Assembly (NCBI GenBank): GCA_017554455.1
Contig: JAFZIH010000142.1
Span: forward strand, 1-53,924
DNA: 53,924 bases
Direction: 5' to 3'
DNA from: Clostridia bacterium
GTDB taxonomy: Bacteria > Bacillota > Clostridia > Christensenellales > CAG-138
Program-made: the position numbers and the translations under genes
In this document: positions 1,888 to 46,933 of the stretch, in pieces
Numbering within the stretch: position 1 is the stretch's first letter
How the letters are laid out: every line of letters begins with the position of its first letter
Notes under the pieces: model-generated
Databases searched by the model: none
What the model was told of the DNA's origin: nothing
Seen by the model: the letters and a program-made list of their open reading frames with translations, nothing else

Positions 1888-2352
1888 TCAGAGGCGGCAG
1901 ACGTCGATCCATTCTGCGTTCGGACATGCGCGTTCAAGCTCCGCGATCGTGAGCCGCACAGCGCTGTGATCCGTGCCCGCGGCGGGATAAACGATCTCAT
2001 GCAGCTTCAAACTTTCGTCGAGATAAACCGTGACATTTTCATTCACGCCGAACGGGCAGACGCCGCCGACCGCGTGTCCGATCAGCGGTTCGACGAGCTC
2101 CGAAGGGATCATCTTTGCCTTGCAGGAAAAGCGCGCTCTGTATTTTGCGTTGTCGATGCGCGCGCTGCCTTCCGCAAGGATCAGCACGGGCCGATCGCCC
2201 TGCAAAAACGATAGGGTTTTCGCGATCATGCCGGGTTCGCAGCCGAGCGCCTCCGCGGCTTCGGCGACCGTCGCGCTGCTTTGCGCGGGAATGATGATAC
2301 GGTCCGCAAGACCCTTTTCGAGAAGATATGCTTTTGCCCGTTCCAACGACAT
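1888..2352 (-). CDS. YbaK/EbsC-type aminoacyl-tRNA deacylase (Cys-tRNA(Pro) deacylase-like)
   Basis: The family-like sequence starts at MSLERAKAYL. GGAGGA SD lies upstream of the ATG at 2350-2352. The longer 226-aa ORF start has no SD. GGVCPFG motif present. Confidence 0.75.
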   Translation of the reverse strand: MSLERAKAYLLEKGLADRIIIPAQSSATVAEAAEALGCEPGMIAKTLSFLQGDRPVLILAEGSARIDNAKYRARFSCKAKMIPSELVEPLIGHAVGGVCPFGVNENVTVYLDESLKLHEIVYPAAGTDHSAVRLTIAELERACPNAEWIDVCRL

Positions 2353-2506
2353 GATCCGATCCTCCAGTCGCACGTTTTTATCAGTATAGCGCATTTCGGC
2401 GGCGTTGAAAAGGCACTTTTCGGTTTCCTGCCGAAACGACTTGCTTTTTCGGGCATGCGCTGATATACTTTTTGCACGCAATACAGATAATGAGGAAACA
2501 ATCGAA

Positions 2507-3865
2507 ATGATCAGTGAAAAAAAGCGAAAGGTATTGTCGCAGAACAAAATGCGGTTCCCGATCGCCATCGAAACGGCCGCAGCGAAGGAATTGTCCGAAA
2601 AAGAGCGGGACGGCGCGTTCTACGAGGAGCTTTTGGAGCTTGCGGTGTCGCTTGCGAACAAGCTGCAGGCATGCGGCGCGGAGACGTACCGCGTGGAGGA
2701 CACGATCAACCGCATCATCGAGGCGTACGGCGTCGAGCGCGTGGACGCGTTCGTCATCCCGAGCAGCATCATGGCAAGCATGGAGACCGACGACGGACAG
2801 ATCCTGACGAAGATCCGGCGGCTGAAAAGCAGCGAAACGCTGTTGGACGGCATTGAGCGCTATTCGGCGCTTTCGCGGAAGATCTGCGCGGAAAAGCCGA
2901 GCATGCGGGAAGCGCGGGCGATGCTCCGGGAGACCGAGAAAAAGGTTTGCCGCTATCCGCTTCCGATCTTCTACCTTGCTGCGTTTCTGATCGGCGTCGG
3001 CTTCGGCGTGTTCTTCGGCGGCGGGATCCTCGAAGGGCTCGCGGCGGGCTTATGCGGGCTTGCGATCGGCGCGGGCACGCGGTTCATGGGCAGATTCCAC
3101 GCGAACGCCTTCTTTACCTCTTTCGTATGCAGCTTTATCCTCGGATTCTTGGCGAACACGTTCACGGCGATCGGATTCGGCAAGAACGCGGACATCACGG
3201 TCATCGGCGCGATCATGCTGCTGGTCCCGGGCTTCCTGTTTACCAACAGTTTGAGAGACGTCATCTACGGCGATACCATGTCCGGGCTCAACCGCCTCGT
3301 GCAGGTGCTGATCATCGGCGTTGCGCTGGCGTTCGGCACGAGCTCCGGGGTCAGCTTGGCGCGGCATATCTTTCCGAACGTCGTGTTTACGCTGGAGCCG
3401 ATCGACCACCCCTTGTGGATCCAATGCATCGCGGGGCTTGTAGGCACGCTCGGTTTCGGGCTGATGTTCAACATGCACGGCCGGGGCATTCCGTTCGCGA
3501 TCCTGGGCAGCATCATTTCGTGGCCGGTCTGCGTACTCTGCATGCGCATCGGGCTTGCGGAGCCGATCGCGTATCTCATTGCGGCCGCCGTGTCCTGCTT
3601 CTATGCGGAGATCATGGCGCGCATCCGCAAGTTCCCGGCGACGAGCTACCTGCTGTGTGCGCTCGTACCGCTGATCCCCGGTTCCGGTATCTATTATACA
3701 ATGGACTTTATCCGCCGCGGCATGCTTTCGGAAGCATATGACAAAGGTATGCTCACCGCGGCGATCGCGGGTTCTATGGCGGTCGGCGTACTGCTCGTTT
3801 CCACCGGCTTCCGCATGTGGGGCGTCGGAAAAAAACGCCGCGCATCCCGGAAAGCAGCCAAATGA
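2507..3865 (+). CDS. ThrE-family (DUF1212 + DUF3815) putative threonine/serine exporter, fused form
   Basis: N-terminal soluble plus TM half (GAETYRVEDT, typical ThrE signature) followed by a second multi-TM half. GAGGA SD at 2492-2496. ATG at 2507. Confidence 0.75.
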   Translation: MISEKKRKVLSQNKMRFPIAIETAAAKELSEKERDGAFYEELLELAVSLANKLQACGAETYRVEDTINRIIEAYGVERVDAFVIPSSIMASMETDDGQILTKIRRLKSSETLLDGIERYSALSRKICAEKPSMREARAMLRETEKKVCRYPLPIFYLAAFLIGVGFGVFFGGGILEGLAAGLCGLAIGAGTRFMGRFHANAFFTSFVCSFILGFLANTFTAIGFGKNADITVIGAIMLLVPGFLFTNSLRDVIYGDTMSGLNRLVQVLIIGVALAFGTSSGVSLARHIFPNVVFTLEPIDHPLWIQCIAGLVGTLGFGLMFNMHGRGIPFAILGSIISWPVCVLCMRIGLAEPIAYLIAAAVSCFYAEIMARIRKFPATSYLLCALVPLIPGSGIYYTMDFIRRGMLSEAYDKGMLTAAIAGSMAVGVLLVSTGFRMWGVGKKRRASRKAAK

Positions 3866-3905
3866 TACGCGCGCAGCGATTAAATGCGCAGAGGGGAGAA
3901 AACAG

Positions 3906-6596
3906 TTGAAAGGGTCTTATGCAATATCGGTCGTAACGGCGGTGTACAACGCCGCGCCGTTTCTTCCGGAAACCTATGAGAGCTTGCTGAAACAGGACAT
4001 CGGGTTCTCCGAGATCCAGTGGATTTTATGCGACGACGGCTCGACAGACGAAAGTCCGGCGATGTGCGACGAATATGCAAAGAAGCATCCGGACAACGTG
4101 GTCGTGATCCACAAGGAGAACGGCGGCGTATCCTCGGCGCGAAACGCCTGCCTTCCGCACGTGCGCGGCAAGTACGTGAGCTTTCTCGACGCGGACGACT
4201 GTCTTTCCGAAAGCGCGATAAGAGAGGTCTGCACGTTCTTTGAAGAGCATCCCGAAACGGACGTCGTTTCACTGCCCATGATCTTCTTCGACGGCGCGAG
4301 CGGCAAACACCCGTTAAATTACAAGTACAATAAAGGGTCGCGCGTCATCGATCTGAAGCTGGAACCGTTCAATCCCCAGCTGGCCGTTACGTCCGCGTTC
4401 GTTCGGGCGGACGCGCTTCGCGGCAAATCATTCGATACAAACCTCAGCTATGCGGAGGACGCGAAGCTTCTGCAATCCATCCTGATCGAGAAGATGACCC
4501 TCGGCGTATATGCCGACGCAGAACACCTGTATCGCCGCCGTTCGACCGGACAGCTCAGCGCGATCCAGAATTCCGGCAACAACAAGGCGTGGTATATCCC
4601 GTACCTGACGCATTTCTGCAAGGAAACGTTTGACGCGTGCGAAGAGCGCTTCGGCTCGATCCCGCGGTTTATTCAGAATACCGTCGCGTACGATCTGCAA
4701 TGGCGCGTCAAGCAAAACAAGATCCCCACCGCAGTCCTGACGCCGGAAGAAAAAGAGGAATACCGGGCACTGCTGTTTTCGCTGGTGAAGCGGATCGACG
4801 ACGATATTCTTGCGCGCCAGTCTGCGCTGAATGCGATGCAGCGGGCGTTCCTCCTCAATAAAAAGCACGACGCCGTTCCTGTCAGCGCTTCGGTTCAGTC
4901 GTTGGGCCGGCTGTGTTATTATCCCGGCGGAAAGCCGTTCAAGCTGGATTTTGATCCGCTGTACGTCGATTTCTGCTCGATCGAAGACGGGATCGTCACG
5001 ATCGAGTGCATGATGCAGATGGTTACCGGTCTGGACACGGAGCCGCCGATGATCGTTGCGGAGGCAAGAAAAGACAACTACACCTGCGAACCGATCGACC
5101 GGCATCAGGACGAGCTTTCGATGGACCTCCCGATCGCAAGACGCTTCGGTTACACGTTCAGGATCCCGCTTCCGGACGACCCGAACGAAACGCTGCGGAT
5201 CCGCTTTAAGCTGCGCACACCGGAAGGCGACATTCCGTGGAACGGACTGTATCTCAAACAGTTTTTCCCCATTTCGGGAAAATACCGGAACGCTTACGCG
5301 CAGATCGGGGACAGGATCCTGAAAAAAGAAAAATCCGAACTGGTCATCTGCAAGGCGAAGGGCAATCGCTTAAAGAGCGAGCTGAAGTTCCAAAGGGAAC
5401 TGCTCGGCAGAAAGAACCGTCTCGATCTTCACGCACTGATCGGAAGGATCGTTTATACGCTGGCAAAGCCGTTCAAAAGAAAGCCGATCTGGCTGATCTC
5501 CGACCGCATGGAGGTCGCGGGCGACAACGGCGAAGCGCTGTTCCGCTATCTTTCGGATCTGCATCTCAAAGACGTGAAACTGTATTTCGCGCTGTCCGAC
5601 AAATGCCCGACGTTCGCCGAATTGAAAAAGATCGGCAAGGTCGTGAAAGCGCGTTCGGCGTTCCATAAAATGCTGTTCCTTCTGTGCGATATGAACATCT
5701 CCTCGCAGGCGGACGACGATATCATTACGCAGTTTTCGAAATACGATTCGGCATACCGCGACATTCAGAACCGGATCCGGTTTGTATTTTTGCAGCACGG
5801 CGTCATCAAGGACGATCTGTCCGGATGGCTGAACCGCTACAACCGCAACATCGACGGATTCGTCACGTCGGCAAAGGCGGAAGCGGATTCGATCCGCGAT
5901 TATGCATACTTCTATTCGGACGATGCGATCTGGCTGACGGGACTTCCGCGCTTTGACCGCCTGTATCACGATGAAAAGCGCTGCATCACGATCATGCCGA
6001 CGTGGCGGCATATGTGGGTCTCGCATACCGATCCGGGCACGGGCGTGCGCATGCTCAAGAACGGATTCGAGGAAGGCAGCTTCTATCGTTTCTACAACGC
6101 GCTGCTGAACGACGAACGGCTGCTGAACGCCGCGAAAAAGAACGGCTACACGGTGCGGTTTCTGCCGCATCCGCTGCTGCAGCCGCATATGGGCCGCTTC
6201 ACGAAGAATGCGGACGTTACGTTCCTCCCGGCGGATACGCCGTACCGGCAGGTGTTTGCCGAGAGCGATCTCGTGCTGACCGATTATTCCTCGGTCGTGT
6301 TCGATTTCGTATATCTCAGAAAGCCCGTCGTCTATACCCAGTTCGATCGCGAAGAATTCTATTCCGGCGATCACATGTACGTACCTGGTTATTTCGATTA
6401 CGACCGCGACGGCTTCGGCGAAGTCGAAACGGAATACGAAGCGACCGTCGACCGGCTGATCGAATACATGGAAAACGACTGCAGACTGAAGGACGAATAC
6501 CGCGCGCGCATCGACGGCTTCTTTGCCTACAACGACCGTGAAAACTGCCGCCGCGTCTACGAAAAGATCCGCGAACTCGAAGCGAAAACGAAATGA
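3906..6596 (+). CDS. Bifunctional GT2 glycosyltransferase / CDP-glycerol glycerophosphotransferase (TagF-like)
   Basis: N-terminus ISVVTAVYNAAPFL...CDDGSTDES...DADD (GT-A fold, GT2). The C-terminal ~380 aa resemble the TagF/TarF Glyphos_transf domain (WLISDR...GDNGEALF...FLQHG). In-frame TTG at 3906 is preceded by GAGGGGAG. The ORF-track start at 3738 overlaps the upstream gene. Confidence 0.8.
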   Translation: MKGSYAISVVTAVYNAAPFLPETYESLLKQDIGFSEIQWILCDDGSTDESPAMCDEYAKKHPDNVVVIHKENGGVSSARNACLPHVRGKYVSFLDADDCLSESAIREVCTFFEEHPETDVVSLPMIFFDGASGKHPLNYKYNKGSRVIDLKLEPFNPQLAVTSAFVRADALRGKSFDTNLSYAEDAKLLQSILIEKMTLGVYADAEHLYRRRSTGQLSAIQNSGNNKAWYIPYLTHFCKETFDACEERFGSIPRFIQNTVAYDLQWRVKQNKIPTAVLTPEEKEEYRALLFSLVKRIDDDILARQSALNAMQRAFLLNKKHDAVPVSASVQSLGRLCYYPGGKPFKLDFDPLYVDFCSIEDGIVTIECMMQMVTGLDTEPPMIVAEARKDNYTCEPIDRHQDELSMDLPIARRFGYTFRIPLPDDPNETLRIRFKLRTPEGDIPWNGLYLKQFFPISGKYRNAYAQIGDRILKKEKSELVICKAKGNRLKSELKFQRELLGRKNRLDLHALIGRIVYTLAKPFKRKPIWLISDRMEVAGDNGEALFRYLSDLHLKDVKLYFALSDKCPTFAELKKIGKVVKARSAFHKMLFLLCDMNISSQADDDIITQFSKYDSAYRDIQNRIRFVFLQHGVIKDDLSGWLNRYNRNIDGFVTSAKAEADSIRDYAYFYSDDAIWLTGLPRFDRLYHDEKRCITIMPTWRHMWVSHTDPGTGVRMLKNGFEEGSFYRFYNALLNDERLLNAAKKNGYTVRFLPHPLLQPHMGRFTKNADVTFLPADTPYRQVFAESDLVLTDYSSVVFDFVYLRKPVVYTQFDREEFYSGDHMYVPGYFDYDRDGFGEVETEYEATVDRLIEYMENDCRLKDEYRARIDGFFAYNDRENCRRVYEKIRELEAKTK

Positions 6597-6610
6597 AGAT
6601 CGCATATCAA

Positions 6611-6644
6611 AAGCCGCCCGGGTTTTCCGGACGGCTTGTTTGTT
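6611..6644. terminator. Bidirectional hairpin terminator between convergent tagF-like and hypA genes
   Basis: AAGCCGCCCGG / CCGGACGGCTT stem with T-rich tracts on both strands. Confidence 0.6.
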
Positions 6645-6726
6645 CTATGGAGCCCTCCTTGTGTAAAGGAGGGTGGCGGGCGAAGCCCGTCGGGAGGATT
6701 GTTCGAACTCTCCGAGCATCGGCAAA

Positions 6727-7074
6727 CTAATCCTCGACTTCTATTTCCTTGATGACACACTCGCTGCCCTTCAGAAGCCACGTTTCGCCGCTGCCGCAGT
6801 AGGGACATGTGCGCCCGTACTGCACCGTGGGATAGGTCCTTTTGCACGCGTCGCACCATGTCACCGCGGGAATTGTCTCCAAAACCAGCTCGGCGGTGTC
6901 GAGCACGGGATGACGCTTTTTAAAATAGTTCCAGCAGTCGACAAAATAGTCCGTCATGATGCCGGAGACCTCGCCGACTTCGAGCGTCACCCGCGTGATC
7001 TTTTTGATGTCCTGCTCCGCCGCGGTCTCCTCAAGGGATTTCGCAAGGTGCAGGATGATGCCCATCTCGTGCAT
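6727..7074 (-). CDS. hypA: Hydrogenase/urease nickel incorporation metallochaperone HypA
   Basis: N-terminal MHE Ni-binding motif. Two CxxC pairs (CDAC...CPYC) form the Zn site. Length 115 aa. Confidence 0.9.
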   Translation of the reverse strand: MHEMGIILHLAKSLEETAAEQDIKKITRVTLEVGEVSGIMTDYFVDCWNYFKKRHPVLDTAELVLETIPAVTWCDACKRTYPTVQYGRTCPYCGSGETWLLKGSECVIKEIEVED

Positions 7075-7077
7075 GGC

Positions 7078-9882
7078 TTATTCGGCGAAATGCTCGGTCG
7101 GACCCTTGTCGCCCGCAAGGATCTTTGCCGCGCGCTTGATCGCGTACTTGCCGACCTTCCCCATCTTGTCCTCGCAGCGCACCATCTCGGACGCCTCGGG
7201 CAGATCGCGGTGCAAATGGATCGCGTCAAACTCGCAGCGCGTGGTGCACAGACCGCAGCCAATGCAGCGATTGAGATCGACGACCGACGCGCCGCAGCCG
7301 AGGCAGCGGTTCGCTTCGGCTTTCACCTGTTCCTCGGTGAACGCGAGCCGCGTGTCGGAGAACGTCGCCTTCGGGTTCACACCGGTCGTACCGGGGATCT
7401 GGCGCTTTGCGTCGTCGTAGCCCGGCAGCGTGATATTCTCTTTGTCGAGTTCCTTGAACTCCCGGAGGTCTCTCGCAATGGTCTGCGATTGACCGGGATG
7501 CACGGAACGGTGCATGGATTCGCACGCCTTCTTGCCGTCCGCGATCGCGTCGATCGCAAACCGCGCGCCGTGCTCGATGTCGCCGCCGGCAAAGATATCC
7601 GGCTCGGCGGTTTGGAACGTGACGGGATCGACGACGACCGTGCCGTTTCTGCGGATCTCGACCTTGGTGTCCTTTAAGAGATCGCCCCAGATCGCGCTTT
7701 GACCGATCGCCTGCAGCACCGCGCTGCACGGGATCGTGATCGTGTCGTTCTCGTCATATTCGGGGCTGAAGCGGTGCTCGGCGTCGTACACGCGCGTGCA
7801 GCGCTTGAAGACGATGCCCGTAACCTTGCCGTTCTCGGTGAGAACCTCCTTGGGACCCCAGCCGTTCTTGACCTCGATCCCTTCTTCCTTCGCTTCCTTG
7901 ACCTCGTCGTCCGCGGCGGGCATCTCGTAATCCTGTTCGAGACAGAGCATCGTGACCTTGCCCGAGGTGCAGCGCGCGGCGGTTCTTGCCACGTCGACCG
8001 CGACGTTGCCGCCGCCCACGACCACCGTGTCGCCGGGAAGCTTGACGGTGTTGTCCAAGCTCACGCGGCGCAAAAACGCCACGCCGGATTCGACGCCTTC
8101 CGCGTCCTCGCCGGGCACGCCGGCTTTCCGTCCGCCCTGCAGACCGATCGCAAGGTAGAACGCCTTATAGCCCTCGTCGCGAAGCCCCCGGATCGTCACG
8201 TCTTTGCCGACCTCGACGCCGCAGCGGAACTCGACGCCCATTTCACGGAGCACGTCGATCTCGGCGTTCAAAACGTCCTTTTCGAGCCGGAAGTTCGGAA
8301 TGCCGTTCAGCAGCATACCGCCGGGACGGGATTCCTTTTCGAACACGGTCACGTCGTAGCCGCGGGTGCGAAGATAGTACGCGCACGAAAGTCCCGCGGG
8401 ACCCGCGCCGATGACCGCCATCTTATAGTCCGGACCCCACATGCCGCCGTCGTCCTTCTCGCAGATCGGGATGAAGCGTTTTTCTGCATGCAGTTCCTGC
8501 GCGGCAATGAATTTCTTGATCTCGTCGATCGCGAGCGGCGCGTCGACCGTGCCGCGCGTGCACGCGTCCTCGCAGCGGCGGTTGCAGATCGCGCCGCAGA
8601 CCGCGGGCAGCGGATTGTCCTGCTTGATGAGTTTCAGCGCGTCCATATAGCGGCCTTCCTTGGCCATCTTGATGTAGCCCTGGATCGCCAGATGCGCGGG
8701 GCACGCGGTCTTGCACGGCGCCGTGCCGGTGTCGTAGCAGTTGATCTTCGCGTCCTCACGGTAGCTCGGATTCCATTGGTCCGCGCCCCATTTGCGCGCG
8801 TCGGGAAGCGGAGAGAGCGGATACGCGACCTTGCTGCCGTCCTTTTTACAGAGCTTCTGCCCGAGCTTTGCCGCGCCGACGGGACAGACCTCGACGCACT
8901 TGCCGCAGGCGACGCACTTTTCGGTCTCGACGTGCGCGCGGTACGCGGAGCGCGACATGTTCGGCGTGTTGTAGAGCTGCGAGGTGCGGATCGCGTTGCA
9001 CACACCCGGCGCGCAGTTGCAGATCGCGACGATCTTGTTCTCGCCGTCGATGTTCGTGATCTGATGCACGAAACCGTGGCGCTCGGCGCGTTCGAGGATC
9101 TCGAGAACCTCTTCATAGCTGATGTAGCGGCCCATGCCGCGGTCGACGCAGTATTCCGCCATGTCGCCGACACCGACGCAGAACTCGCCGTTGATCTCGC
9201 CGCTGCCTTCGCCGCGCATGCTCTGCTGCTTCCGGCAGGTGCACTGCCCGACGCTGTACTTGTCGTACTTATTCAGCCAATGCGTGATGTGCTCGACGTC
9301 CGCGCTTTGATTCTCATGCTCGATCGCCTTTTCGACCGGGATGACGTGCATGCCCACGCCGCTGCCGCCGAGCGGGATCATCTGCGTGATGTTTTCGAGC
9401 GGCATCTGCGTCATGAGATTGAAGAACGTCGCAAGCTCCGGATGCTCCTCCGTGAGCTTGTCGTTCATCATCATGAACTCGGCGCTGCCCGGTACGAAGA
9501 TCGGCACGTTGTAGGTCTTGCCGTGATTTTCGCCCTCGCGCGTCATTTCGAGAAGCCCGACCCAAAGGAGGTGGTCGATCATCTTCTGCGCGTCTTCGAC
9601 GGACATGTTGTTGCGCTTTGCGATCTCTTCTGTCGAATACGGTACGCGCGTCTTTTTGAAGCTCAGCAGGAACTTACATTCCTCCTTCGTGATGACCGCG
9701 TCGAGCGCCCAGTATTCGGGATCGTCGATCTTCAGGGTATGCGTATACTTCTGCAGGTATCGGTCGGTGATCATCGTGCCGAGCTTTAAGATCAGCTTTT
9801 TCTTCTCCTCGTCAACGACCTTGCGGTTCGGATCGGCGCGAAAATCGCGCTCGTTTACCATGCGGTTCTTTTGCTCTTTCAT
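7078..9882 (-). CDS. 934-aa multidomain Fe-S flavoprotein: Cys-rich N-terminal module + GltD/NfnB-like NAD(P)H oxidoreductase + C-terminal 2x[4Fe-4S] ferredoxin
   Basis: CVACGKCVEVCP (4Fe-4S). GltD-type N-terminus (CPAHLAIQGYI...NPLPAVCGAICNRRCEDAC). Dinucleotide fold VIGAGPAGL...GGGNVAVD. C-terminal CLGCG...CIGCGLCTTRCE. The N-terminal 330 aa with CTC / CNCAPGVC motifs is not assignable by eye. Confidence 0.8.
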   Translation of the reverse strand: MKEQKNRMVNERDFRADPNRKVVDEEKKKLILKLGTMITDRYLQKYTHTLKIDDPEYWALDAVITKEECKFLLSFKKTRVPYSTEEIAKRNNMSVEDAQKMIDHLLWVGLLEMTREGENHGKTYNVPIFVPGSAEFMMMNDKLTEEHPELATFFNLMTQMPLENITQMIPLGGSGVGMHVIPVEKAIEHENQSADVEHITHWLNKYDKYSVGQCTCRKQQSMRGEGSGEINGEFCVGVGDMAEYCVDRGMGRYISYEEVLEILERAERHGFVHQITNIDGENKIVAICNCAPGVCNAIRTSQLYNTPNMSRSAYRAHVETEKCVACGKCVEVCPVGAAKLGQKLCKKDGSKVAYPLSPLPDARKWGADQWNPSYREDAKINCYDTGTAPCKTACPAHLAIQGYIKMAKEGRYMDALKLIKQDNPLPAVCGAICNRRCEDACTRGTVDAPLAIDEIKKFIAAQELHAEKRFIPICEKDDGGMWGPDYKMAVIGAGPAGLSCAYYLRTRGYDVTVFEKESRPGGMLLNGIPNFRLEKDVLNAEIDVLREMGVEFRCGVEVGKDVTIRGLRDEGYKAFYLAIGLQGGRKAGVPGEDAEGVESGVAFLRRVSLDNTVKLPGDTVVVGGGNVAVDVARTAARCTSGKVTMLCLEQDYEMPAADDEVKEAKEEGIEVKNGWGPKEVLTENGKVTGIVFKRCTRVYDAEHRFSPEYDENDTITIPCSAVLQAIGQSAIWGDLLKDTKVEIRRNGTVVVDPVTFQTAEPDIFAGGDIEHGARFAIDAIADGKKACESMHRSVHPGQSQTIARDLREFKELDKENITLPGYDDAKRQIPGTTGVNPKATFSDTRLAFTEEQVKAEANRCLGCGASVVDLNRCIGCGLCTTRCEFDAIHLHRDLPEASEMVRCEDKMGKVGKYAIKRAAKILAGDKGPTEHFAE

Positions 9883-9895
9883 ATGCTCCTCCCGA

Positions 9896-10555
9896 TCAGT
9901 ATTTCCATGTTTCGACCTGTTCGCTTACCCACTCTTCCCATGCTTCGAAGCCCTCGCCGGTCTTTGCGGAGACCGCGAACACGCGGATGGTTGGATTCAG
10001 CTTCCTTGCCCTCGAAACGCACGCGTCGACGTCGAAATCGAAGTACGGTGCGACGTCGGTCTTCGTGATGATAAGCACGTCGCTTTTGCTGAACATCAGC
10101 GGGTACTTCAGCGGCTTGTCGTCGCCCTCGGGCACGGAGAGCAGCATCACGCAGCGGCCCGCGCCGGTATCGAACTCCGCGGGGCAGATGAGATTGCCGA
10201 CGTTCTCCAGAAAGACGAGATCGAATGGCTCGTCTCCGAGCCCCTCCAGCGCGCGGCGCGTCATGCCCGCGTCCATGTGGCACATGCCGTCGGTGTGCGC
10301 CTGCACGGCTTTCGCGCCGATCTTTTCGATGCGGACCGCGTCCACGTCGGAATCGACGTCCGCCTCCATGACCGCAATGCGCAGCTCGTCCTTCATGTCG
10401 CGGATCGTGCGCTCCAGAAGCGTCGTTTTGCCTGCGCCGGGCGACGCCATCAGGTTGATCAGCAGCGTGCCCTTCTGTTTCAGCTCGCCGCGTAGCACCT
10501 CCGCGTCACGGTCGTTCGACGCCGTGACCGTTTCTTTGAGTTCGATGATTTTCAT
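9896..10555 (-). CDS. hypB: Nickel-dependent GTPase HypB
   Basis: P-loop SPGAGKTTLL, metal site CH (GMCHMD), ENVGNLICP motif. 219 aa. No His-rich or CxxCGC N-terminus. Confidence 0.9.
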   Translation of the reverse strand: MKIIELKETVTASNDRDAEVLRGELKQKGTLLINLMASPGAGKTTLLERTIRDMKDELRIAVMEADVDSDVDAVRIEKIGAKAVQAHTDGMCHMDAGMTRRALEGLGDEPFDLVFLENVGNLICPAEFDTGAGRCVMLLSVPEGDDKPLKYPLMFSKSDVLIITKTDVAPYFDFDVDACVSRARKLNPTIRVFAVSAKTGEGFEAWEEWVSEQVETWKY

Positions 10556-10585
10556 GCAAAAACTCCTTTATATGTCGTATATTTT

Positions 10586-10614
10586 ATTATATCAGCACAC
10601 GCCGCCGAACGCAA
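10586..10614 (-). promoter_or_regulatory. Putative sigma-A promoter of the hypB operon
   Basis: Minus strand reads TTGCGT-17 nt-TATAAT, about 30 nt upstream of the hypB start. Confidence 0.45.
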
Positions 10615-10646
10615 GAAAAACCGTACAAAACCCATGACTGCATTTA

Positions 10647-10776
10647 CCCCCCTGTGTGTAGCAGTGTAGCAAATGTAGCAAATGTAGTCAGATGATTGTT
10701 ATCTTATATTATTTCATATAATATGACTCCAAAAGCTACAAATGCTACAAATGCTACATTGCTACACACACCCCCC
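10647..10776. repeat. MITE-like element: 118-bp unit with ~36-bp imperfect terminal inverted repeats built from TGTAGCA units, flanked by CCCCCC direct repeats
   Basis: Left arm TGTGTGTAGCAGTGTAGCAAATGTAGCAAATGTAG (10653 onward). The right arm reverse complement is TGTGTGTAGCAATGTAGCATTTGTAGCATTTGTAG (ending at 10770). AT-rich core with ATATTAT/ATAATAT hairpin. CCCCCC at 10647-10652 and 10771-10776. Confidence 0.6.
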
Positions 10777-10826
10777 GAATGTAGTCAAGGTGAGCGTTGC
10801 CCATAAACAGCTTGCGGCGTTTCTGC

Positions 10827-10854
10827 GCAAAACAAAAAAGCGCCTTACGGCGCT
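10827..10854 (-). terminator. Rho-independent terminator of the LTD-ogt operon
   Basis: AGCGCC-TTAC-GGCGCT hairpin overlapping the ogt stop, followed on the minus strand by TTTTTTGTTTT. Confidence 0.75.
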
Positions 10855-11318
10855 CATTTGTTGTGCTGTTGTTCGATTTTCAACAATGCTTCTTTCCGTT
10901 CGATCCCGCCGGCAAAGCCGGTCAAGCTGCCGCCCTCTCCCAGCACCCGATGGCAGGGAATAAACAGGATCAAAGGATTGCGGTGCAGCGCGCCGCCGAC
11001 CGCGCGGGCATGGCGGGCGGTGAGCCCCATCGAAACGGCAAGCTCGCCATAGGTCCTCGTTTCACCGTACGGAACGGCGGAAAGCGCCGTCCACACCGCC
11101 TTTTGAAACGGCGTGCCCTTCGGATCGCACGGCGGGACCGGTCCCGGATCGCGTCCTTCGAAATACCGGTCGAGCCACGCCTTTGCCTCAGTCAGTACGG
11201 GCGAAGTCGGCGCGGTTTCGGGCGTGTCGTCAACAAACGCCGAGATCACGAGCGCGCCGGAATCTTCCTCGATGCGCAGCGAGCCAAGCGGCGAATTGTA
11301 ATAAAACGCGTTATTCAA
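10854..11318 (-). CDS. ogt: Methylated-DNA--protein-cysteine methyltransferase
   Basis: Active-site IPCHRV motif and the surrounding helix-turn-helix region (TYGELA...). 154 aa. Confidence 0.9.
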   Translation of the reverse strand: MNNAFYYNSPLGSLRIEEDSGALVISAFVDDTPETAPTSPVLTEAKAWLDRYFEGRDPGPVPPCDPKGTPFQKAVWTALSAVPYGETRTYGELAVSMGLTARHARAVGGALHRNPLILFIPCHRVLGEGGSLTGFAGGIERKEALLKIEQQHNK

Positions 11319-11919
11319 AGCGGTTGCTCTCCCCCGGCGTCGGGTGTTCGGTCACGGCAAAATCGCCCGCTTCCGTTCTCGCGTAGGCGGCGTCCGTTTC
11401 GAGCATCGGCACCACAAGCTCGTCCGCCTCGACCTTCATCGGCGTGACGAGAAAGAGCTTTTCACCCTCTTTGGACAGATTGAAGCCGGTGCAGAACGGA
11501 TCACTGTCACTTTGCTCCGTTCCGCCGGTGCAGTACAGCACGAGATACGCGCCGGGCTTTAAGATCACGCCGTCCGGGAAGCGGTAGCGGAACTGGTGGT
11601 GCTTCAGATCATTCGTAAACCCGTAGCCGGATAGGTCGATATCCGCGTCGGTGGGGTTGTAGATCTCGACCCAGTCGACCGAGCCGTACTGCGGGTGCAG
11701 ATACGCTTCGCGGTTCGAGGTCATGACCTCGGAAAACTTCGGCAGTCCCGTGGGCTTCGGCAAAAGCCATACCGCCGCCGCGGTGATCGCGGCGATCACA
11801 ACGACGAGCACGGCGACGAGGATCAGCGCACGCTTCCGCGTGAGCCCGATGCGTTCCTTCTGAAATTCGTTCTCAAACGAGAGATCTTCAAAATTATCTT
11901 CCATACCCGTATTATACAT
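11311..11919 (-). CDS. Membrane-anchored lamin-tail-domain (LTD) protein
   Basis: One TM helix (ALILVAVLVVVIAAITAAAVWLL), then an LTD-like beta-sandwich (VDWVEIYNPTDADIDLSGYGFTND...PGAYLVLY). Start is ambiguous: GTG 11937, ATG 11919 or ATG 11904, none with a good SD. The stop overlaps the ogt start by 8 nt. Confidence 0.65.
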   Translation of the reverse strand: MYNTGMEDNFEDLSFENEFQKERIGLTRKRALILVAVLVVVIAAITAAAVWLLPKPTGLPKFSEVMTSNREAYLHPQYGSVDWVEIYNPTDADIDLSGYGFTNDLKHHQFRYRFPDGVILKPGAYLVLYCTGGTEQSDSDPFCTGFNLSKEGEKLFLVTPMKVEADELVVPMLETDAAYARTEAGDFAVTEHPTPGESNRFE

Positions 11920-11932
11920 GAAAAAAACTGTT

Positions 11933-11959
11933 TTCACAAGTGAAACTATATGGTATAAT
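11933..11959 (+). promoter_or_regulatory. Putative glpK promoter
   Basis: TTCACA (11933-11938), 15-nt spacer, TATAAT (11954-11959). The spacer is short, so this is weak. Confidence 0.3.
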
Positions 11960-11986
11960 AAATTATTCCGGAAAGGGGTCCATGGT

Positions 11987-13483
11987 ATGCAGAAATATTT
12001 ATTGTCGCTGGATCAGGGCACGACGAGCTCGCGCGCGATCCTGTTCGATCTTCAAGGGAAGATCATCACCTCCGCGCAGTTCGAGTTCACGCAGCATTAT
12101 CCGATGCCCGGCTACGTCGAGCACGACGCGAACGAGATCTTAAAGACCGAGCTGGACGCGGTCCGCGAGGTCCTGAAAAAAGCGAACGTGCAGAAGGGCG
12201 AGGTCGCCGCGATCGGCGTCACGAACCAGCGCGAAACGACGATCGTGTGGGAAAAGGCGACGGGCAAGCCCGTGCATCCGGCGATCGTGTGGCAGTGCCG
12301 CCGCACCGCGCCGCTGTGCGAACAGCTGATCCGCGAAGGCATGCGGGACTATATCGCGCAGTCGACGGGACTTCTGATCGACGCGTACTTCTCCGCGACA
12401 AAGCTCCGCTACATTCTCGACGCGGTCCCGAACGGACAGATGCTGGCGGAAGCGGGCAATCTCCTGTTCGGTACGGTCGACACGTGGCTCATCTGGAACC
12501 TCACCGGCGCGCACGTCACCGATTACAGCAACGCGTCGCGCACCATGCTCTATAACATCCATACGCTCTCCTACGATCCGGTCATCATGCGGCGGCTCAA
12601 CATCCCCGCGTGCATCCTGCCGGAGGTCAAGCCGTCCGCGTGCGTCTACGGGTACGTGAAGGACGGCATCGAAGGGCTTGAAGTCCTTGCGGGCGTTCCG
12701 ATCGCGGGCGACGCGGGCGACCAGCAGGCAGCGCTGTTCGGACAGGCGTGCTTTGAACCGGGACAGGCGAAATGCACCTACGGCACCGGCGGCTTTTTAA
12801 TGATGCAGACGGGCGAAACGCCGGTCGCGAGCAAGAACCGTCTTCTCACCACGATCGCGTGGGGCGTCGGAAATAAGGTCCGCTATGCGCTCGAGGGCAG
12901 CATCTTCAACGCGGGCAGTTCGATCAAGTGGTTAAGAGACGAGGTCGGGCTGATCTCCTCCGCGCACGAGATCGACACGCTTGCCGAATCCGTGCCCGAC
13001 GCGGGCGGGGCGTACTTCGTCTCCGCGTTCACGGGTCTCGGCGCGCCGCATTGGGACATGTACGCGCGCGGCGCATTGGTCGGCGTGACCCGCGCCACGA
13101 ACCGTGCGCACATTGCGCGCGCAGTGCTCGAAGGCATCGTCTATCAGGTGGGCGATCTTGCCCGCACGATGGAGTTCGACAGCGGCAGAAAGCTTGAGGA
13201 ATTGAAGGTCGACGGCGGCGCGTCCGTATCGAACGTGATGATGCAGTTCCAGGCAGACATGCTCGACGTGCCGGTCAACCGTCCGAAGTGCGTCGAATCC
13301 ACGGCGCTCGGCGCGGCGTACCTCGCGGCGATCGGGGTGGGCTTATATCACGACGAAAGCGACGTTCTGCACTACTGGCAGAGCGAAAAGATCTTTACGC
13401 CCGCGATGAGCGAGGTCGAGCGCGCAAAGCGGCAGCGCGGCTGGACGAAGGCGGTCGAAAAGGCAAAGAACTGGGAAGACTGA
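11987..13483 (+). CDS. glpK: Glycerol kinase
   Basis: MQKYLLSLDQGTTSSRAILFD... is the canonical FGGY/GlpK N-terminus. AAAGGGG SD lies upstream of ATG 11987. Matches GlpK full length by eye. Confidence 0.92.
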   Translation: MQKYLLSLDQGTTSSRAILFDLQGKIITSAQFEFTQHYPMPGYVEHDANEILKTELDAVREVLKKANVQKGEVAAIGVTNQRETTIVWEKATGKPVHPAIVWQCRRTAPLCEQLIREGMRDYIAQSTGLLIDAYFSATKLRYILDAVPNGQMLAEAGNLLFGTVDTWLIWNLTGAHVTDYSNASRTMLYNIHTLSYDPVIMRRLNIPACILPEVKPSACVYGYVKDGIEGLEVLAGVPIAGDAGDQQAALFGQACFEPGQAKCTYGTGGFLMMQTGETPVASKNRLLTTIAWGVGNKVRYALEGSIFNAGSSIKWLRDEVGLISSAHEIDTLAESVPDAGGAYFVSAFTGLGAPHWDMYARGALVGVTRATNRAHIARAVLEGIVYQVGDLARTMEFDSGRKLEELKVDGGASVSNVMMQFQADMLDVPVNRPKCVESTALGAAYLAAIGVGLYHDESDVLHYWQSEKIFTPAMSEVERAKRQRGWTKAVEKAKNWED

Positions 13484-13513
13484 GAGAGTTTATAATCCGA
13501 AGGGAGAAAAAAT

Positions 13514-14632
13514 ATGGCAATCAAAGAAACAAGACCTTATGTGGACTGGGAAACCATCGGAAACTTCATTGTGGACGCGTTCGTTGCGTACGGCGTGCCG
13601 CGTGAGGACGCATTGGTGTGCGCGGACGTTCTGATGGAGAGCGACCGCCGCGGCATCGAAAGCCACGGCGTCAACCGCTTCAAGCCGATCTATCTGGATC
13701 GCATCAAGGCGGGCATCTTAAACCCCGTCACCGAGTACGAAGTGCTCAAGGAGACCCCGACGACCGCGGTGGTCGACGGACATGACGGCATGGGCATGGT
13801 GATCAGTAAGCGCGCCATGCAGACCGCGATCGACAAGGCGAAGCAGTACGGCATGGGCATGGTCGCGGTACGCAATTCCTCGCACTACGGCATCGCGGGC
13901 TACTGGACCACGATGGCGACGAAGCAGGGACTCATCGGCATCACGGGCACGAACGCGCGTCCGTCCATCGCCCCGACCTTCGGCGTCGAGAACATGCTCG
14001 GCACGAACCCGCTGACGATCGCGCTTCCGACCGACGAGGAATTCCCGTTCTGCATCGACTGCGCGACCTCCATCACGCAGCGCGGCAAGATCGAGTACTA
14101 TGCGAGAAACGATAAGGACACGCCCGCGGGCATGGTCATCGGCCGCGACGGCAGCGCCATGACCGACAGTAAGCAGATCCTCATCGACCTCACCAAGGGT
14201 GAAGCGGCGCTCGCTCCGCTCGGCGGCATCGGCGAGGAGCTTGCGGGCTACAAGGGCTACGGCTACGCGACGGTTGTGGAGATCCTCTCCGCGGCGCTGC
14301 AGGCGGGCAGTTACATGAAGATGCTGACCGGCATGGACGAGAACGGCAACAAGCGCCCGTATCATCTCGGTCACTTCTTCATCGCGATCGATCCCGAGGC
14401 GTTCATGGGTCTCGACACGTTCAAGAAAACCTGCGGCGACATCCTCCGCGCGCTGCGCAATTCCGAAAAGGCGCCGGGTCAGGAGCGCATCTACACCGCG
14501 GGCGAAAAGGAATGGCTCGTGTGGCAGGACCGCAAGGACAAGGGCGTTCCCGTCAACGAGGCGGTGCAGAAGGAACTGGTCGCCGTACGCGACGAGAAGC
14601 ATCTCGATTATCATTTCTCCTTCGAGAAATAA
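13514..14632 (+). CDS. Ldh_2-family (malate/L-lactate/ureidoglycolate-type) NAD(P)H-dependent dehydrogenase
   Basis: ESHGVNRF, VRNSSHYGIAGYW and the following Ldh_2 hallmarks. 372 aa. Confidence 0.8.
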   Translation: MAIKETRPYVDWETIGNFIVDAFVAYGVPREDALVCADVLMESDRRGIESHGVNRFKPIYLDRIKAGILNPVTEYEVLKETPTTAVVDGHDGMGMVISKRAMQTAIDKAKQYGMGMVAVRNSSHYGIAGYWTTMATKQGLIGITGTNARPSIAPTFGVENMLGTNPLTIALPTDEEFPFCIDCATSITQRGKIEYYARNDKDTPAGMVIGRDGSAMTDSKQILIDLTKGEAALAPLGGIGEELAGYKGYGYATVVEILSAALQAGSYMKMLTGMDENGNKRPYHLGHFFIAIDPEAFMGLDTFKKTCGDILRALRNSEKAPGQERIYTAGEKEWLVWQDRKDKGVPVNEAVQKELVAVRDEKHLDYHFSFEK

Positions 14633-14644
14633 AAAGCATTGTGA

Positions 14645-14677
14645 AAAAACAGGCACATTACCGTGCCTGTTTTTTTC
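14645..14677 (+). terminator. Rho-independent terminator after the glpK-ldh2 pair
   Basis: ACAGGCAC-ATTACC-GTGCCTGT followed by TTTTTTT. Confidence 0.8.
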
Positions 14678-14740
14678 GTGACTGCGCAATGGGATCCGCG
14701 GCAACCGCAAATGAAGTTTGTCCGATTTTTGGGAAAAATG

Positions 14741-14769
14741 TTGATTCACAGATTAAAAAGCGTTATAAT
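14741..14769 (+). promoter_or_regulatory. Near-consensus sigma-A promoter heading the lipid cluster
   Basis: TTGATT (14741-14746), 17 nt, TATAAT (14764-14769), 35 nt upstream of ATG 14804. Confidence 0.55.
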
Positions 14770-14803
14770 GGCAAAAGTGATTTAATTTGGACGAGTGTTG
14801 TTT

Positions 14804-16738
14804 ATGACGGATTATCATATCGGTTCCTACCGCTCCATCGACGCCTTTGTGCGGGATAAACTCGACGCGTTCCGCGCCGCCGGGTTTTCTTTCGATGCGC
14901 TGTTCGAGCTGATGTTCCGCGAGACGGAAAACGTCCTCTACGAGCAAAGCGAGGGCTTTCGGATCCGCAAAACGACCTACGGCGAAGCGAAAGCGCAGAT
15001 CCTTTCGCGTGCCGCCGCATTGAAAACGGCTCTCGGAACGTTTCCGAAGGACGCCGTCGTCGGATTGTACCTTGATAATGGGCTCGATTGGATCGAGCTT
15101 TTCTGGGCGATCCTTGCCGCGGGCTTCCGTCCGCTTCTGATGAACCTGCGTCTGCCGGCGCCGCTGCTTGCTGGCGCATTGAAGATCGCGGACTGCCGGG
15201 CGGTCATTGCGGAACAGGGCGATTTTTCCTGCCCTGTGCTGCATCCGGATGAGATCCCGCCCTCCGGCGAACCGATCGCGGCGCAGCCGTTCGGCACGGA
15301 GCTGCTCGTCATGTCCTCCGGCACGACCGAGAACGTCAAGGTCTGCGCGTACGGAGCGGAGGAGTTCTTTTACCAGATCTGCGATAGTTACGGGATCATC
15401 CGGGAACAGCCGCTGATCAAAAAGCACTTTGAAGGCAATCTCAAGCTTCTGACCTTCCTCCCCTTCTATCACGTGTTCGGCCTGATCGCGATGTATATCT
15501 GGTTCGGGTTCTTTTCGCGTACGTTCGTACATTTGAACGACCTCTCCCCGTCCACCATCGTCAACACGATCCGCCGGCACAAGGTCACGCACATCTTTGC
15601 CGTGCCGCTCTTTTGGGAAAAGGTTTTTGAACAGGCAAATAAAGAGATCAAAAACCGCGGCGAACAGACCGCGGCGAAGTTCGACCGCGCGCTCGCTCTG
15701 ACGCAGAAGCTGCCCCGCCCGCTTTCCGCGGCGTTTTCGAAGCTTGCGTTCCGCGAGGTGTGCGACAATCTGTTCGGGGATTCCGTCGTCTATATGATCT
15801 CGGGCGGGAGCTTTCTGGATCCCGCCGTGCAGGCGTTTTTCAACGGCATCGGATACCCGCTCGCAAACGGCTACGGCATGACCGAGATCGGGATCACGTC
15901 GGTCGAGCTGTCCGCAAAGCAGAAATACCTGCGCCTCGGCTGCGTCGGAAAACCGATGCAGAACGTCGAATACCGCATCGATGAAACGGGCGAGCTGCTC
16001 GTTCGCGGGCTTGTGACCGCAAAATACGTGCTGACCGAAACGGGGCGGACGGATCGCTCCGGATGGTTCAATACGCACGATCTTGCGGAATGCGTCGACG
16101 GGCATTACCGCATCCTCGGCCGCGCGGACGATCTCATCGTCGGCGCGAACGGAGAAAACCTGAATCCGAACGCCGTGGAGCCGCTTCTTCGGACGGACGG
16201 GACGGAGATCTGTCTCATCCCCGTCGGCGACGGCGGAAGATCCTCCGCCGTGCTGCTCGTCGGCATGAACCGCATGACCGCCGCGGAAGCGGCAAAAAAG
16301 CTTTTGGACGCGGTGAAAAAGCGGGTCGACCGCTCCGGTCTTTCCGCCGCGATCTCGCGCATCGTTCCGGTTGAAGGTCCTCTGATGGCGGCGAACGAAT
16401 TCAAGCTGAACCGGATCCGTCTCCGCCGCGACTTTGCTTCCGGCGCGCTGCGTCCGCTCGATCTCTCGCAAAAACGCGACGATACGGAAGCCGACGCGCT
16501 TCTAAACCGCATCCGCGCCGTCGTCGCCGCCGCCGTGAACCGCAGCGAGGACGAAGTCGCCTTCGACGCCGATTTCTTCCTTGATCTCGGCGGCACGAGC
16601 TTGGATTATTTTGCCATGCTGACGAAGCTTCGGGACGAGTTCGACGCGCCGTTCCCCCTGGAGGAGACCGGGCTGAAGACCGTCCGCAGCATTGCGGACT
16701 ACGTTCGCAGAGAGAAAGGCGGCGATCTTCGGGTATGA
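14804..16738 (+). CDS. Adenylate-forming enzyme fused to a C-terminal carrier (PP-binding) domain (A-T didomain)
   Basis: ANL-superfamily cores: MSSGTTENVKV (degenerate A3), GYGMTE (A5), WFNTHDL (A7 with H for G), GRADDLIV (A8). The C-terminal ~75 aa carry LDLGGTSLDYFAML (phosphopantetheine Ser). Confidence 0.8.
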   Translation: MTDYHIGSYRSIDAFVRDKLDAFRAAGFSFDALFELMFRETENVLYEQSEGFRIRKTTYGEAKAQILSRAAALKTALGTFPKDAVVGLYLDNGLDWIELFWAILAAGFRPLLMNLRLPAPLLAGALKIADCRAVIAEQGDFSCPVLHPDEIPPSGEPIAAQPFGTELLVMSSGTTENVKVCAYGAEEFFYQICDSYGIIREQPLIKKHFEGNLKLLTFLPFYHVFGLIAMYIWFGFFSRTFVHLNDLSPSTIVNTIRRHKVTHIFAVPLFWEKVFEQANKEIKNRGEQTAAKFDRALALTQKLPRPLSAAFSKLAFREVCDNLFGDSVVYMISGGSFLDPAVQAFFNGIGYPLANGYGMTEIGITSVELSAKQKYLRLGCVGKPMQNVEYRIDETGELLVRGLVTAKYVLTETGRTDRSGWFNTHDLAECVDGHYRILGRADDLIVGANGENLNPNAVEPLLRTDGTEICLIPVGDGGRSSAVLLVGMNRMTAAEAAKKLLDAVKKRVDRSGLSAAISRIVPVEGPLMAANEFKLNRIRLRRDFASGALRPLDLSQKRDDTEADALLNRIRAVVAAAVNRSEDEVAFDADFFLDLGGTSLDYFAMLTKLRDEFDAPFPLEETGLKTVRSIADYVRREKGGDLRV

Positions 16739-17379
16739 TCGGGCTGTTCAACTGGTTTGTGAAGATCACCGGCTGGCCCGTACAGTTTCTGTGCTTTCGG
16801 ACAAAGATCCTCTACGAGGACAGAAAGGTGCAGGGACGGCACATCGAAAAGGATGCGATCGTGATCTCGAATCATACGTCGATCTTCGACTACGCGGTCT
16901 ATCTGTTCGTGTTCTGTACGCGCACGCTGCGCTTTCAGATGGCGGAGGTGCTGTATGAAAAGCCGCTGCTCGCGCTGCTTCTGCGGTGTCTCGGCGGGAT
17001 CCGCGTCGACCGGAACGCGCATGATTTCGGGTTCATGCCGAAATCGCTTTCGATCCTTTCGCGCGGGGGCGTGGTCGGGATCTTTCCGGAAAGCCGTCTG
17101 CCCCGCCCGGGCGAAGCGCGTCCGTTGCCGTTCAAGGTGAGCGCGGCGTATCTCGCGCTTACAAGCGGGTCGAAGATCATACCCGTCGTGACGAACGGAT
17201 CGTATTTTTGCCGCAAACGCGCCCGCGTTCTGATCGGAAAGCCGATCCTCGCCTCCGATCTTCTGGAAGAGGGCGTCGGCGAAACGGAGAATCTTGCCAT
17301 CGTTTCCGAACGGCTTCGGGAACGGATCATCGCATTGGAGAAACTGCTGTATGGAACAGAAACGACCGAATCGCGCTAA
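16735..17379 (+). CDS. PlsC/LPLAT-family acyltransferase 1
   Basis: HX4D block ISNHTSIFD and FPESRL block. ATGA overlap with the upstream stop. Confidence 0.85.
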   Translation: MIGLFNWFVKITGWPVQFLCFRTKILYEDRKVQGRHIEKDAIVISNHTSIFDYAVYLFVFCTRTLRFQMAEVLYEKPLLALLLRCLGGIRVDRNAHDFGFMPKSLSILSRGGVVGIFPESRLPRPGEARPLPFKVSAAYLALTSGSKIIPVVTNGSYFCRKRARVLIGKPILASDLLEEGVGETENLAIVSERLRERIIALEKLLYGTETTESR

Positions 17380-20801: not shown

Positions 20802-20811
20802 GGAGGACGGT

Positions 20812-46929: not shown

Positions 46930-46933
46930 CGGT

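Follow-up and report, generated by a model that had tools for sequence, protein, structure and literature searches.

The hypB/isrA-like/hypA locus

The window analyzed here is a 53.9-kb stretch of DNA (53,924 nucleotides [nt] of contig JAFZIH010000142.1, assembly GCA_017554455.1) from a Clostridia bacterium, and its subject is a minus-strand gene cluster in which a large open reading frame (ORF) of 934 amino acids (aa) lies between hypB and hypA. The hypB gene (9896-10555) comes first and encodes a 219-aa nickel GTPase of the G3E family; the isrA-like gene (7078-9882) follows, encoding a multi-cluster Fe-S flavoprotein that is predicted to be of the IsrA "clade 9" type; and hypA (6727-7074) encodes a 115-aa nickel metallochaperone. 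The genes are separated by gaps of 13 nt (9883-9895) and 3 nt (7075-7077). These coordinates and spacings had all been given correctly in a first-pass annotation, which was made from the sequence alone.

A putative promoter and ribosome-binding site (RBS) were read by eye ahead of hypB (10563-10614, minus strand). The promoter comprises TTGCGT (10614-10609), a 17-nt spacer, and TGaTATAAT (10594-10586), and is followed by the RBS AAAGGAG (10569-10563); it was missed by the consensus scan because its -35 element fits at only 3 of 6 positions. The leader 5' of hypB is a 300-nt, AT-rich region that begins past the terminator hairpin of the preceding O6-methylguanine-DNA methyltransferase (MGMT) gene, which the promoter/terminator scan placed at 10838-10855. 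At the other end of the cluster, 90 nt 3' of hypA, a terminator-like hairpin (GCCGTCCGG-AAAACC-CCGGGCGGC, then TTTTGAT; about 6606-6636, minus strand) was also read by eye, having escaped the terminator scan because its stem holds one mismatch. Given the tight gaps, the leader promoter and RBS, and the hairpin 3' of hypA, a single three-gene operon is the natural and plausible reading of the cluster, and the earlier claim that the genes share one promoter is likewise plausible. The hypB leader also contains an inverted repeat (10653-10770) upstream of the putative promoter, with 35-nt arms (10653-10687 and 10736-10770) that are 86% complementary. Each arm consists of 3 or 4 tandem 9-nt TGTAGCAAA units, and an AT-rich 48-nt core lies between the arms. 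This repeat is a possible operator array; it was sought upstream of related operons and was found in none of 84 loci.

The identities proposed earlier for the two small genes held. HypB scored 249.5 bits on TIGR00073 (cutoff of 121.2) and also matched PF02492, with weak cobW, MeaB, and ZigA matches besides the HypB model. Its translation includes the P-loop ASPGAGKT (aa 37 to 44) and a G-domain metal site comprising C92-H93 and C124, and it has neither the N-terminal CxxCGC motif nor a His-rich tail, as in "type 1" HypB. HypA scored 107.7 bits on PF01155 (cutoff of 28.9), and its translation exhibits the N-terminal MHE nickel site and a zinc site formed by C74-x2-C77 and C90-x2-C93. On the NCBIfam equivalog TIGR00100 it reached 73.8 bits, under the cutoff of 88.1, and was therefore taken to represent a divergent HypA subfamily. 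To our knowledge, the only established clients of HypA and HypB are [NiFe]-hydrogenase and Helicobacter urease, and we know of no HypA/HypB pair that delivers any metal except nickel.

The flavoprotein, its N-terminal module, and the IsrA family

Pfam and PDB matches confirmed that the large protein has the GltD/NfnB-like core and the ferredoxin domains first ascribed to it. Residues 362 to 865 aligned with NfnB, with the small chain of glutamate synthase, with the N-terminal half of dihydropyrimidine dehydrogenase (DPD), and with StnC-type chains (PDB chains 5jca_L, 4ylf_B, 1gt8_A, 6s6s_G, 8oh5_C, and 9bov_A), with E values from 1e-89 to 1e-51. Within this core, on the minus strand, are a Fer4_20 domain of the DPD domain II type with two [4Fe-4S] clusters (8488-8742; aa 381 to 465; PF14691, 78.4 bits), which aligned with 9bov_A, 8oh5_C, and NfnB chains, and the FAD/NAD(P)H-binding domain Pyr_redox_2 (7534-8427; aa 486 to 783; PF07992, 100.9 bits), whose PDB matches were NfnB, DPD, and the GltD small chain. 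Two further ferredoxin motifs, both with invariant cysteines, lie toward the ends of the protein. The first (8848-8943, minus strand) reads C323-x2-C326-x2-C329-x3-C333-P plus C345 and matched PF00037/PF12837, with Fer4 at aa 316 to 337; the C-terminal one (7210-7305, minus strand) comprises C860-x2-C863 and C873-x2-C876-x2-C879-x3-C883 and matched PF13459 (weakly) and PF00037 (about aa 867 to 891). Over the whole protein, approximately 30 cysteines are invariant among 77 full-length homologues, which should be enough to ligate four or more canonical [4Fe-4S] clusters in addition to the Cys6 site described below. All 139 NCBIfam matches of the protein were under their cutoffs (best, PRK12771, 417.9 versus 516), and the protein is probably not a glutamate synthase small subunit or NfnB equivalog, the core domain alone being in common. 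The NfnB, GltD, DPD, and StnC modules have in common with it the cysteines that bind the clusters as well as the sites for FAD and NAD(P)H. The N-terminal module is absent from all of them, and the catalytic partner domain of the window protein is a different, uncharacterized one.

The N-terminal module comprises aa 1 to 312 (8947-9882, minus strand). The first-pass annotation had described a Cys-rich N-terminal region of about 330 aa that it could not assign, and the module indeed matched no family in Pfam or NCBIfam and no PDB sequence (best E value of 0.78). The structure prediction that had been proposed for this region was carried out, yielding an AlphaFold2 model with a predicted local distance difference test score (pLDDT) of 77.6 and a predicted template modeling score (pTM) of 0.80. 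Foldseek searches with the whole model matched just winged helix-turn-helix structures of the MarR/ArsR/CzrA type, with high probability but with E values of 0.02 or more, leaving a winged-helix-like sub-domain (9508-9720, minus strand; about aa 55 to 125) as the only recognizable part.

The best-conserved motif of the module, PLGGSGVGMHVIPVEKAI (aa 170 to 187), sits in the sole low-confidence loop of the model (aa 167 to 194; 9301-9384, minus strand; pLDDT < 50). H179 and E184 within it are invariant, and the loop may serve as a mobile lid, in metal binding, or in the docking of a chaperone. The remainder of the module is a Cys6 sub-domain (aa 195 to 312; 8947-9300, minus strand). In the 77 sequences, its C214, C216, C235, C288, C290, and C295 never vary, and neither do H273, E197, E225, R217, W202, and N289; D240 and R299 each vary in just one homologue. 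The motifs GQCTCRKQ (C214 and C216) and AICNCAPGVCNA (C288, C290, and C295), which had been quoted from the window protein at the outset, were thus found to be present and invariant across the family. A model of residues 190 to 312 (pLDDT 69.6) had no structural neighbor in Foldseek (best E value of 0.79). A structural tie of the module to acetyl-CoA synthase (ACS), carbon monoxide dehydrogenase (CODH), nitrogenase, or double-cubane proteins was unsupported by Foldseek, as judged from apo models of moderate confidence. The nickel sites of ACS and CODH are served by CooC/AcsF-type maturases and not by HypAB. Conceptually, the Cys-x-Cys next to an Fe-S site where an electron chain ends resembles ACS (A-cluster, Cys-Gly-Cys), CODH, and the acetylene-reducing double-cubane proteins (PMC10134865), but these have no sequence or fold similarity to the Cys6 sub-domain.

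A closely corresponding system has been described by Kronen et al. 2023 (mSystems, PMC10134865), who found in Acetobacterium wieringae ISORED-2 an operon of five genes, "isr," that is induced by isoprene. Its products are the putative isoprene reductase IsrA (VUZ27132.1, 901 aa), a ferredoxin sharing the N-terminal region of IsrA, a single HypB, and two copies of HypA; IsrA, HypB, and HypA were induced by isoprene, and IsrA was the only redox protein to be so (PMC10134865). IsrA was assigned an FAD/NAD(P)H site and, besides four canonical [4Fe-4S] clusters, a "cluster V" set among six cysteines (Cys6) that include two CxC motifs (C180/C182 and C254/C256); its first ferredoxin motif is at 289 to 300, and its N-terminal region of approximately 270 aa has no predictable domain (PMC10134865). 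Its "clade 9" homologues occur in Firmicutes plus other phyla, and in a neighborhood network of 988 IsrA homologues the co-occurrence values were 0.73 for HypA, 0.56 for HypB, 0.4 for DUF5692, and 0.21 for TetR (PMC10134865). Two 2026 preprints describe a Pelotomaculum enrichment in which isoprene raised hypA 373-fold and hypB 585-fold. Apart from these two preprints and the 2023 paper, our literature search found nothing on IsrA biochemistry, DUF5692, or a biohydrogenation link.

The membership of the window protein in this family was assessed by setting a fingerprint of features against the published description of IsrA. The CxC-to-CxC spacing of 74 and the CxC-to-Fer4 spacing of 35 are identical in the two proteins (C214/C216, C288/C290, and C323 in the window protein), and the same 74/35 fingerprint was found in 16 distant representatives. 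Both proteins are about 900 aa long, the window protein being 33 aa longer, and both have a domain-less N terminus of about 270 to 310 aa followed by Fer4, Fer4_20, Pyr_redox_2, and a C-terminal Fer4. On these features, the window protein very probably belongs to the IsrA "clade 9" family with its dedicated hyp linkage. The operons differ in that the window has three genes rather than the five of isr, with one hypA instead of two and no companion N-module ferredoxin; no second copy of the module was found in the window by tblastn. The isoprene-reducing subclade (A. wieringae ISORED-2, strain Y, and Pelotomaculum) is marked by a 26-aa insertion at IsrA 756 to 782 (PMC10134865), which is likely missing in the window protein, as judged from length arithmetic only. 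The window operon therefore appears to fall outside the pattern of that subclade. The hosts also differ, IsrA being from an acetogen and the window protein from a high-GC gut or rumen Clostridia lineage.

Family distribution, hyp linkage, and the rest of the window

At 77% identity or higher, over 120 cluster representatives matched the full-length protein, all of them labeled just "FAD-dependent oxidoreductase." A profile of the N-terminal module recovered 2,078 clusters (at the 50% identity level) with E values of ≤0.001, including 960 at ≤1e-10, and the architecture was unchanged in the remote full-length members. In a species-dereplicated genome collection, at least 573 genomes carry the module. 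Eighty loci were fetched, and 74 species-level loci with a near-complete gene were used for counts. The fetched loci were mainly from Lachnospiraceae, Oscillospiraceae, Erysipelotrichaceae, Anaerovoracaceae, Mogibacterium, Butyrivibrio, Roseburia, and Lachnospira, and many came from rumen or gut metagenome-assembled genomes; cultured carriers include Roseburia hominis, Lachnospira hominis, and Brotomerdimonas butyrica.

Within 10 kb of the isrA-like gene, hypA was present in 37/74 loci and hypB in 26/74, so that one or both were present in 39 (53%); in 30 loci hypA was within 500 nt, the median distance being 42 nt. The hyp-linked fraction was the same when at least 5 kb of flank was required on either side (21/39). 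When all neighboring ORFs were clustered without bias, HypA and HypB came out far ahead of any other genuine neighbor, the next commonest being found in at most 15 of the 74 loci. The adjacency of hypAB to the isrA-like gene is thus far beyond chance. The neighborhood resembles that reported for IsrA (HypA, "type 1" HypB, and DUF5692), with hypB and hypA in the window and DUF5692 in eight loci of the family. The order of the genes is not fixed. Locus L001, a homologue of 81% identity on a 1.15-Mb contig with wholly different flanks, has hypB-hypB-X-hypA (X being the isrA-like gene), and L004, with a more distant homologue and unrelated flanks, has X-hypA-DUF5692-hypB; in all, BB-X-A, X-A-B, X-BB-A, and divergent arrangements were observed. 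Because the orders are shuffled, selection is favored over shared ancestry of one block as the explanation. The conservation of synteny on which the first-pass annotation had made its proposal depend is therefore borne out in 39/74 species loci, which span different families of Bacillota.

The isrA-linked chaperones have kept their ligands: the MHE site was present in 38/39 HypA and the zinc site in 39/39, and the P-loop and CH motif were present in 44/44 HypB. A reciprocal test started from HypA. Four of four HypA relatives on long contigs, with identities in the close-relative range (73 to 82%), abut an isrA-like gene and hypB, and no hydrogenase genes were found near these four. No hydrogenase subunits or hypCDEF were seen in the gene tables of six sampled contexts of homologues and HypA relatives. 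The loci without an adjacent hyp gene were also considered as a possible divergent, nickel-independent subfamily, which was ruled out: at each of the 17 positions considered as candidate ligands, conservation is the same with and without an adjacent hyp gene.

Several variants of the locus were observed. Tandem hypB pairs occur in 14 loci (L001, L008, L010, L011, L029, L044, L045, L057, L059, L067, L074, and L079 among them; e.g., L001 8635-10004), with the P-loop and CH motif in both paralogues, which suggests a heterodimeric HypB. The single hypB of the window is an orthologue of the promoter-distal copy of these pairs. A DUF5692 polytopic membrane protein (PF18948, E value of 5e-131; L004 11134-12180) is encoded directly after hypA in the eight loci mentioned (L004, L047, L048, L049, L050, L066, L070, and L073), followed by hypB in four (L004, L066, L073, and one other), and could be a nickel or substrate transporter. 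Two IsrA-like paralogues of about 937 and 973 aa accompany a single hypB/hypA set in L086 (1-4987) and L088 (1-4999), and second IsrA-like copies are suggested in L056, L069, and L079. One 542-aa protein (P0210) was considered as a "Rosetta-stone" fusion of HypB and the module and was ruled out, since alignment exposed read-through or frameshifted tails, i.e., an assembly artifact; many "partial" N-module matches with scrambled C termini are read-through or frameshift artifacts too.

Elsewhere in the window, Pfam scans of 37 other predicted genes revealed no hydrogenase, urease, CODH/ACS, or nickel transporter, so that the earlier statement that no conventional client is present in the 53.9 kb holds at the level of these scans, in which five ORFs had no Pfam hit. 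Neither LarA nor hypCDEF families were among the Pfam hits, neither having been searched by name. The five ORFs without a Pfam hit (744, 266, 199, 243, and 571 aa; at E values of 1e-6 to 1e-8) have a good coding signal and lie in a sugar-utilization region, within 41920-44154, 44868-46962, and 50028-51743. A malK-I RNA (Rfam, 130.6 bits) was identified at 39339-39519 on the minus strand, upstream of a MalK-like ABC ATPase gene and within a GH32/LacI/ABC-permease fructan-utilization locus (38 to 53 kb), and Rfam also identified one tRNA gene at 679-752 on the minus strand.

A candidate nickel client and its possible substrates

Both the association with hypAB and the nickel-client idea are not new, having been published in 2023, when it was proposed that IsrA receives nickel from the chaperones and binds it at cluster V (PMC10134865); by that proposal, the Cys6 sub-domain would hold "cluster V" and the nickel. 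The first-pass annotation had left two alternatives for the large protein, a conserved electron-transfer partner or a new metal client of the chaperones. The second is favored here because of the conserved synteny, the reciprocal HypA linkage, the retention of the chaperone ligands, and the invariant set of six cysteines with its His, Glu, and Asp residues; as to its novelty, the idea had been published already, and the nickel in the protein is still something that we infer. Taken on its own, the proposition that the large protein is a nickel client of HypAB seems to us slightly better than an even call on the sequence evidence. Our favored reading of the locus, which we hold to be probable as a whole and more speculative as regards the substrate, is that of a nickel-dependent reductase of hydrophobic C=C substrates encoded as part of a hypB/isrA-like/hypA operon.

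In the mechanism envisaged, NAD(P)H would reduce the FAD, and electrons would run along the chain of [4Fe-4S] clusters to the Cys6 site in the N-terminal module. HypB would load Ni(II), in a GTP-dependent manner, onto the MHE site of HypA, which would then dock on the module and insert the nickel at, or adjacent to, the Fe-S site that C214, C216, C235, C288, C290, and C295 make up. H179, H273, E197, E225, and D240 would lie near the proposed nickel site, and the electron chain would thus end in an active site of the Ni-Fe-S type. The [NiFe]-hydrogenase and Helicobacter pylori urease systems use the same chaperone families, with the MHE, Zn-Cys4, P-loop, and CH...C elements, but their clients have no similarity to the putative client here, and the window has neither a hydrogenase large subunit nor a urease in the Pfam scans.

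Several observations weigh against this reading. No hyp gene was found within 10 kb in 35/74 loci (approximately 47%), including all four of the cultured Butyrivibrio, and in the 77-sequence comparison these hyp-less loci carry candidate ligands identical to those of the others. A nickel-free Fe-S cluster, ordinary or unusual, would be enough to account for the six cysteines. The window HypA falls under the equivalog cutoff (73.8 versus 88.1), and the metal specificity of its apparently divergent subfamily is assumed. The visible DNA is 53.9 kb of a genome, and a conventional nickel enzyme may lie elsewhere in it. Our literature search found no metal analysis or enzyme assay for any family member, IsrA included. 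Finally, the lipid-handling genes of the window, considered below, are on the opposite strand, with two unrelated genes in between.

These observations lend themselves to other explanations, of which the most substantial is that the large protein, though an Fe-S flavoprotein, contains no nickel, HypAB bringing zinc or iron or assisting the assembly or docking of the Cys6 cluster. The six cysteines do resemble unusual Fe-S ligation of the kinds seen in ferredoxin:thioredoxin reductase (CxC), the P-cluster, and double-cubane proteins (PMC10134865). The G3E GTPases include zinc and cobalt chaperones, and the weak cobW, MeaB, and ZigA matches of the window HypB, the sub-cutoff HypA score, and the missing adjacent hyp genes in half of the loci all fit a role for another metal. 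Nevertheless, HypB is well over the cutoff of the HypB-specific model, the nickel-specific MHE N terminus is found in 38 of the 39 linked HypA, and it is nickel alone that HypA/HypB pairs are known to deliver, all of which leave this a minority possibility, if a serious one. The visible portion of the genome being so small, hypAB might instead mature a conventional enzyme encoded elsewhere ([NiFe]-hydrogenase, urease, or CODH), with the adjacency of the flavoprotein incidental or co-regulatory, and Pelotomaculum species with IsrA homologues do also possess [NiFe]-hydrogenases. We consider this improbable, however, since the adjacency is kept in more than half of the species through shuffled orders and unrelated flanks, and since the HypA relatives that were sampled, four in all, each adjoin an isrA-like gene and have neither hydrogenase genes nor hypCDEF in their vicinity. 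Moreover, A. wieringae ISORED-2 has the operon yet no [NiFe]-hydrogenase and no hypCDEF, its other nickel enzymes having their own maturases (PMC10134865), and the Pfam hits of the window include no hypCDEF-type family, these genes not having been searched by name.

It is also conceivable, if very improbable, that the flavoprotein merely assists the chaperones as a redox partner, providing electrons for the handling of nickel or for some third client. Its core is after all a generic module for electron input from NAD(P)H to Fe-S clusters, and the winged-helix part could be an element for docking to protein or DNA. Against such a role, no third conserved partner emerged among the neighboring genes, a protein of 934 aa with some 30 invariant cysteines would be disproportionate for it, and in A. 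wieringae IsrA stood alone as an isoprene-induced redox protein (PMC10134865).

As for the reaction of the favored nickel-dependent reductase, the chemistry would be the reduction of an unactivated or conjugated C=C bond on a hydrophobic substrate, by comparison with the isoprene proposal in Acetobacterium. A substrate other than isoprene is likely, since the window lacks a second hypA and the companion ferredoxin and probably also the insertion, and since other Acetobacterium homologues of IsrA did not reduce isoprene (PMC10134865). An unsaturated acyl chain or a polyene would be the more likely substrate in this gut or rumen lineage. That the enzyme reduces a C=C bond of a lipid-like substrate is nonetheless a tentative suggestion, which we would place on the unlikely side. 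Fatty-acyl genes near the isrA-like gene in several lineages do point to lipids and are suggestive only. In L001, a tight operon (1934-13129) encodes an acyl-AMP ligase, an 81-aa acyl carrier protein (ACP), an acyl-ACP thioesterase, two HypB, the IsrA-like protein, and HypA; transcribed divergently from it are genes of the amine-oxidase-like, CrtI/carotenoid-isomerase-like, and FNR-like (Fer2) kinds, a flavoprotein set that was also found in 9 to 15 of the fetched loci. An oleate hydratase gene adjoins the IsrA homologues of A. woodii (PMC10134865).

A lipid-handling block is also present in the window at 11918-25757 on the plus strand, 1.4 kb from the operon. It encodes a glycerol kinase, an Ldh_2-family dehydrogenase, an acyl-AMP ligase fused to an ACP domain, two acyltransferases, a second fatty-acid-CoA-ligase-like protein, an LRAT+PPTase fusion, alpha/beta hydrolases, DegV, an MFS transporter, and FakA.

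By itself, the window locus is one more example of the IsrA family, with supporting comparative evidence, and not a discovery. The observations that go beyond the published work are the invariance of the ligand set with or without adjacent hyp genes, the reciprocal tie of HypA relatives to isrA-like genes, and the recurring fatty-acyl context. As a clean, minimal three-gene version, the locus is suited to heterologous expression. The boldest form of the proposal, in which the N-terminal module holds a Ni-Fe-S cofactor of a kind not seen before, installed by HypA/HypB without HypCDEF, and the family comprises a new class of nickel enzymes that hydrogenate unactivated or conjugated C=C bonds and are candidates for gut and rumen biohydrogenation, we regard as doubtful. 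If it were true, the enzymes of gut and rumen Bacillota would act on polyenes or on fatty acyl chains with double bonds, and these proteins would be candidates for the long-sought biohydrogenation reductases. Just a handful of nickel enzyme classes are known. Nickel biochemistry would be broadened by a third HypAB client whose Ni-Fe-S site is new, and "orphan" hypAB genes would find an explanation; the IsrA-type family may be a new nickel enzyme class that is abundant in gut and rumen bacteria. Because gut and rumen Lachnospiraceae, Oscillospiraceae, and Erysipelotrichaceae are where the family is mainly found, the compound on which it acts could be relevant to the lipid or terpenoid metabolism of the host.

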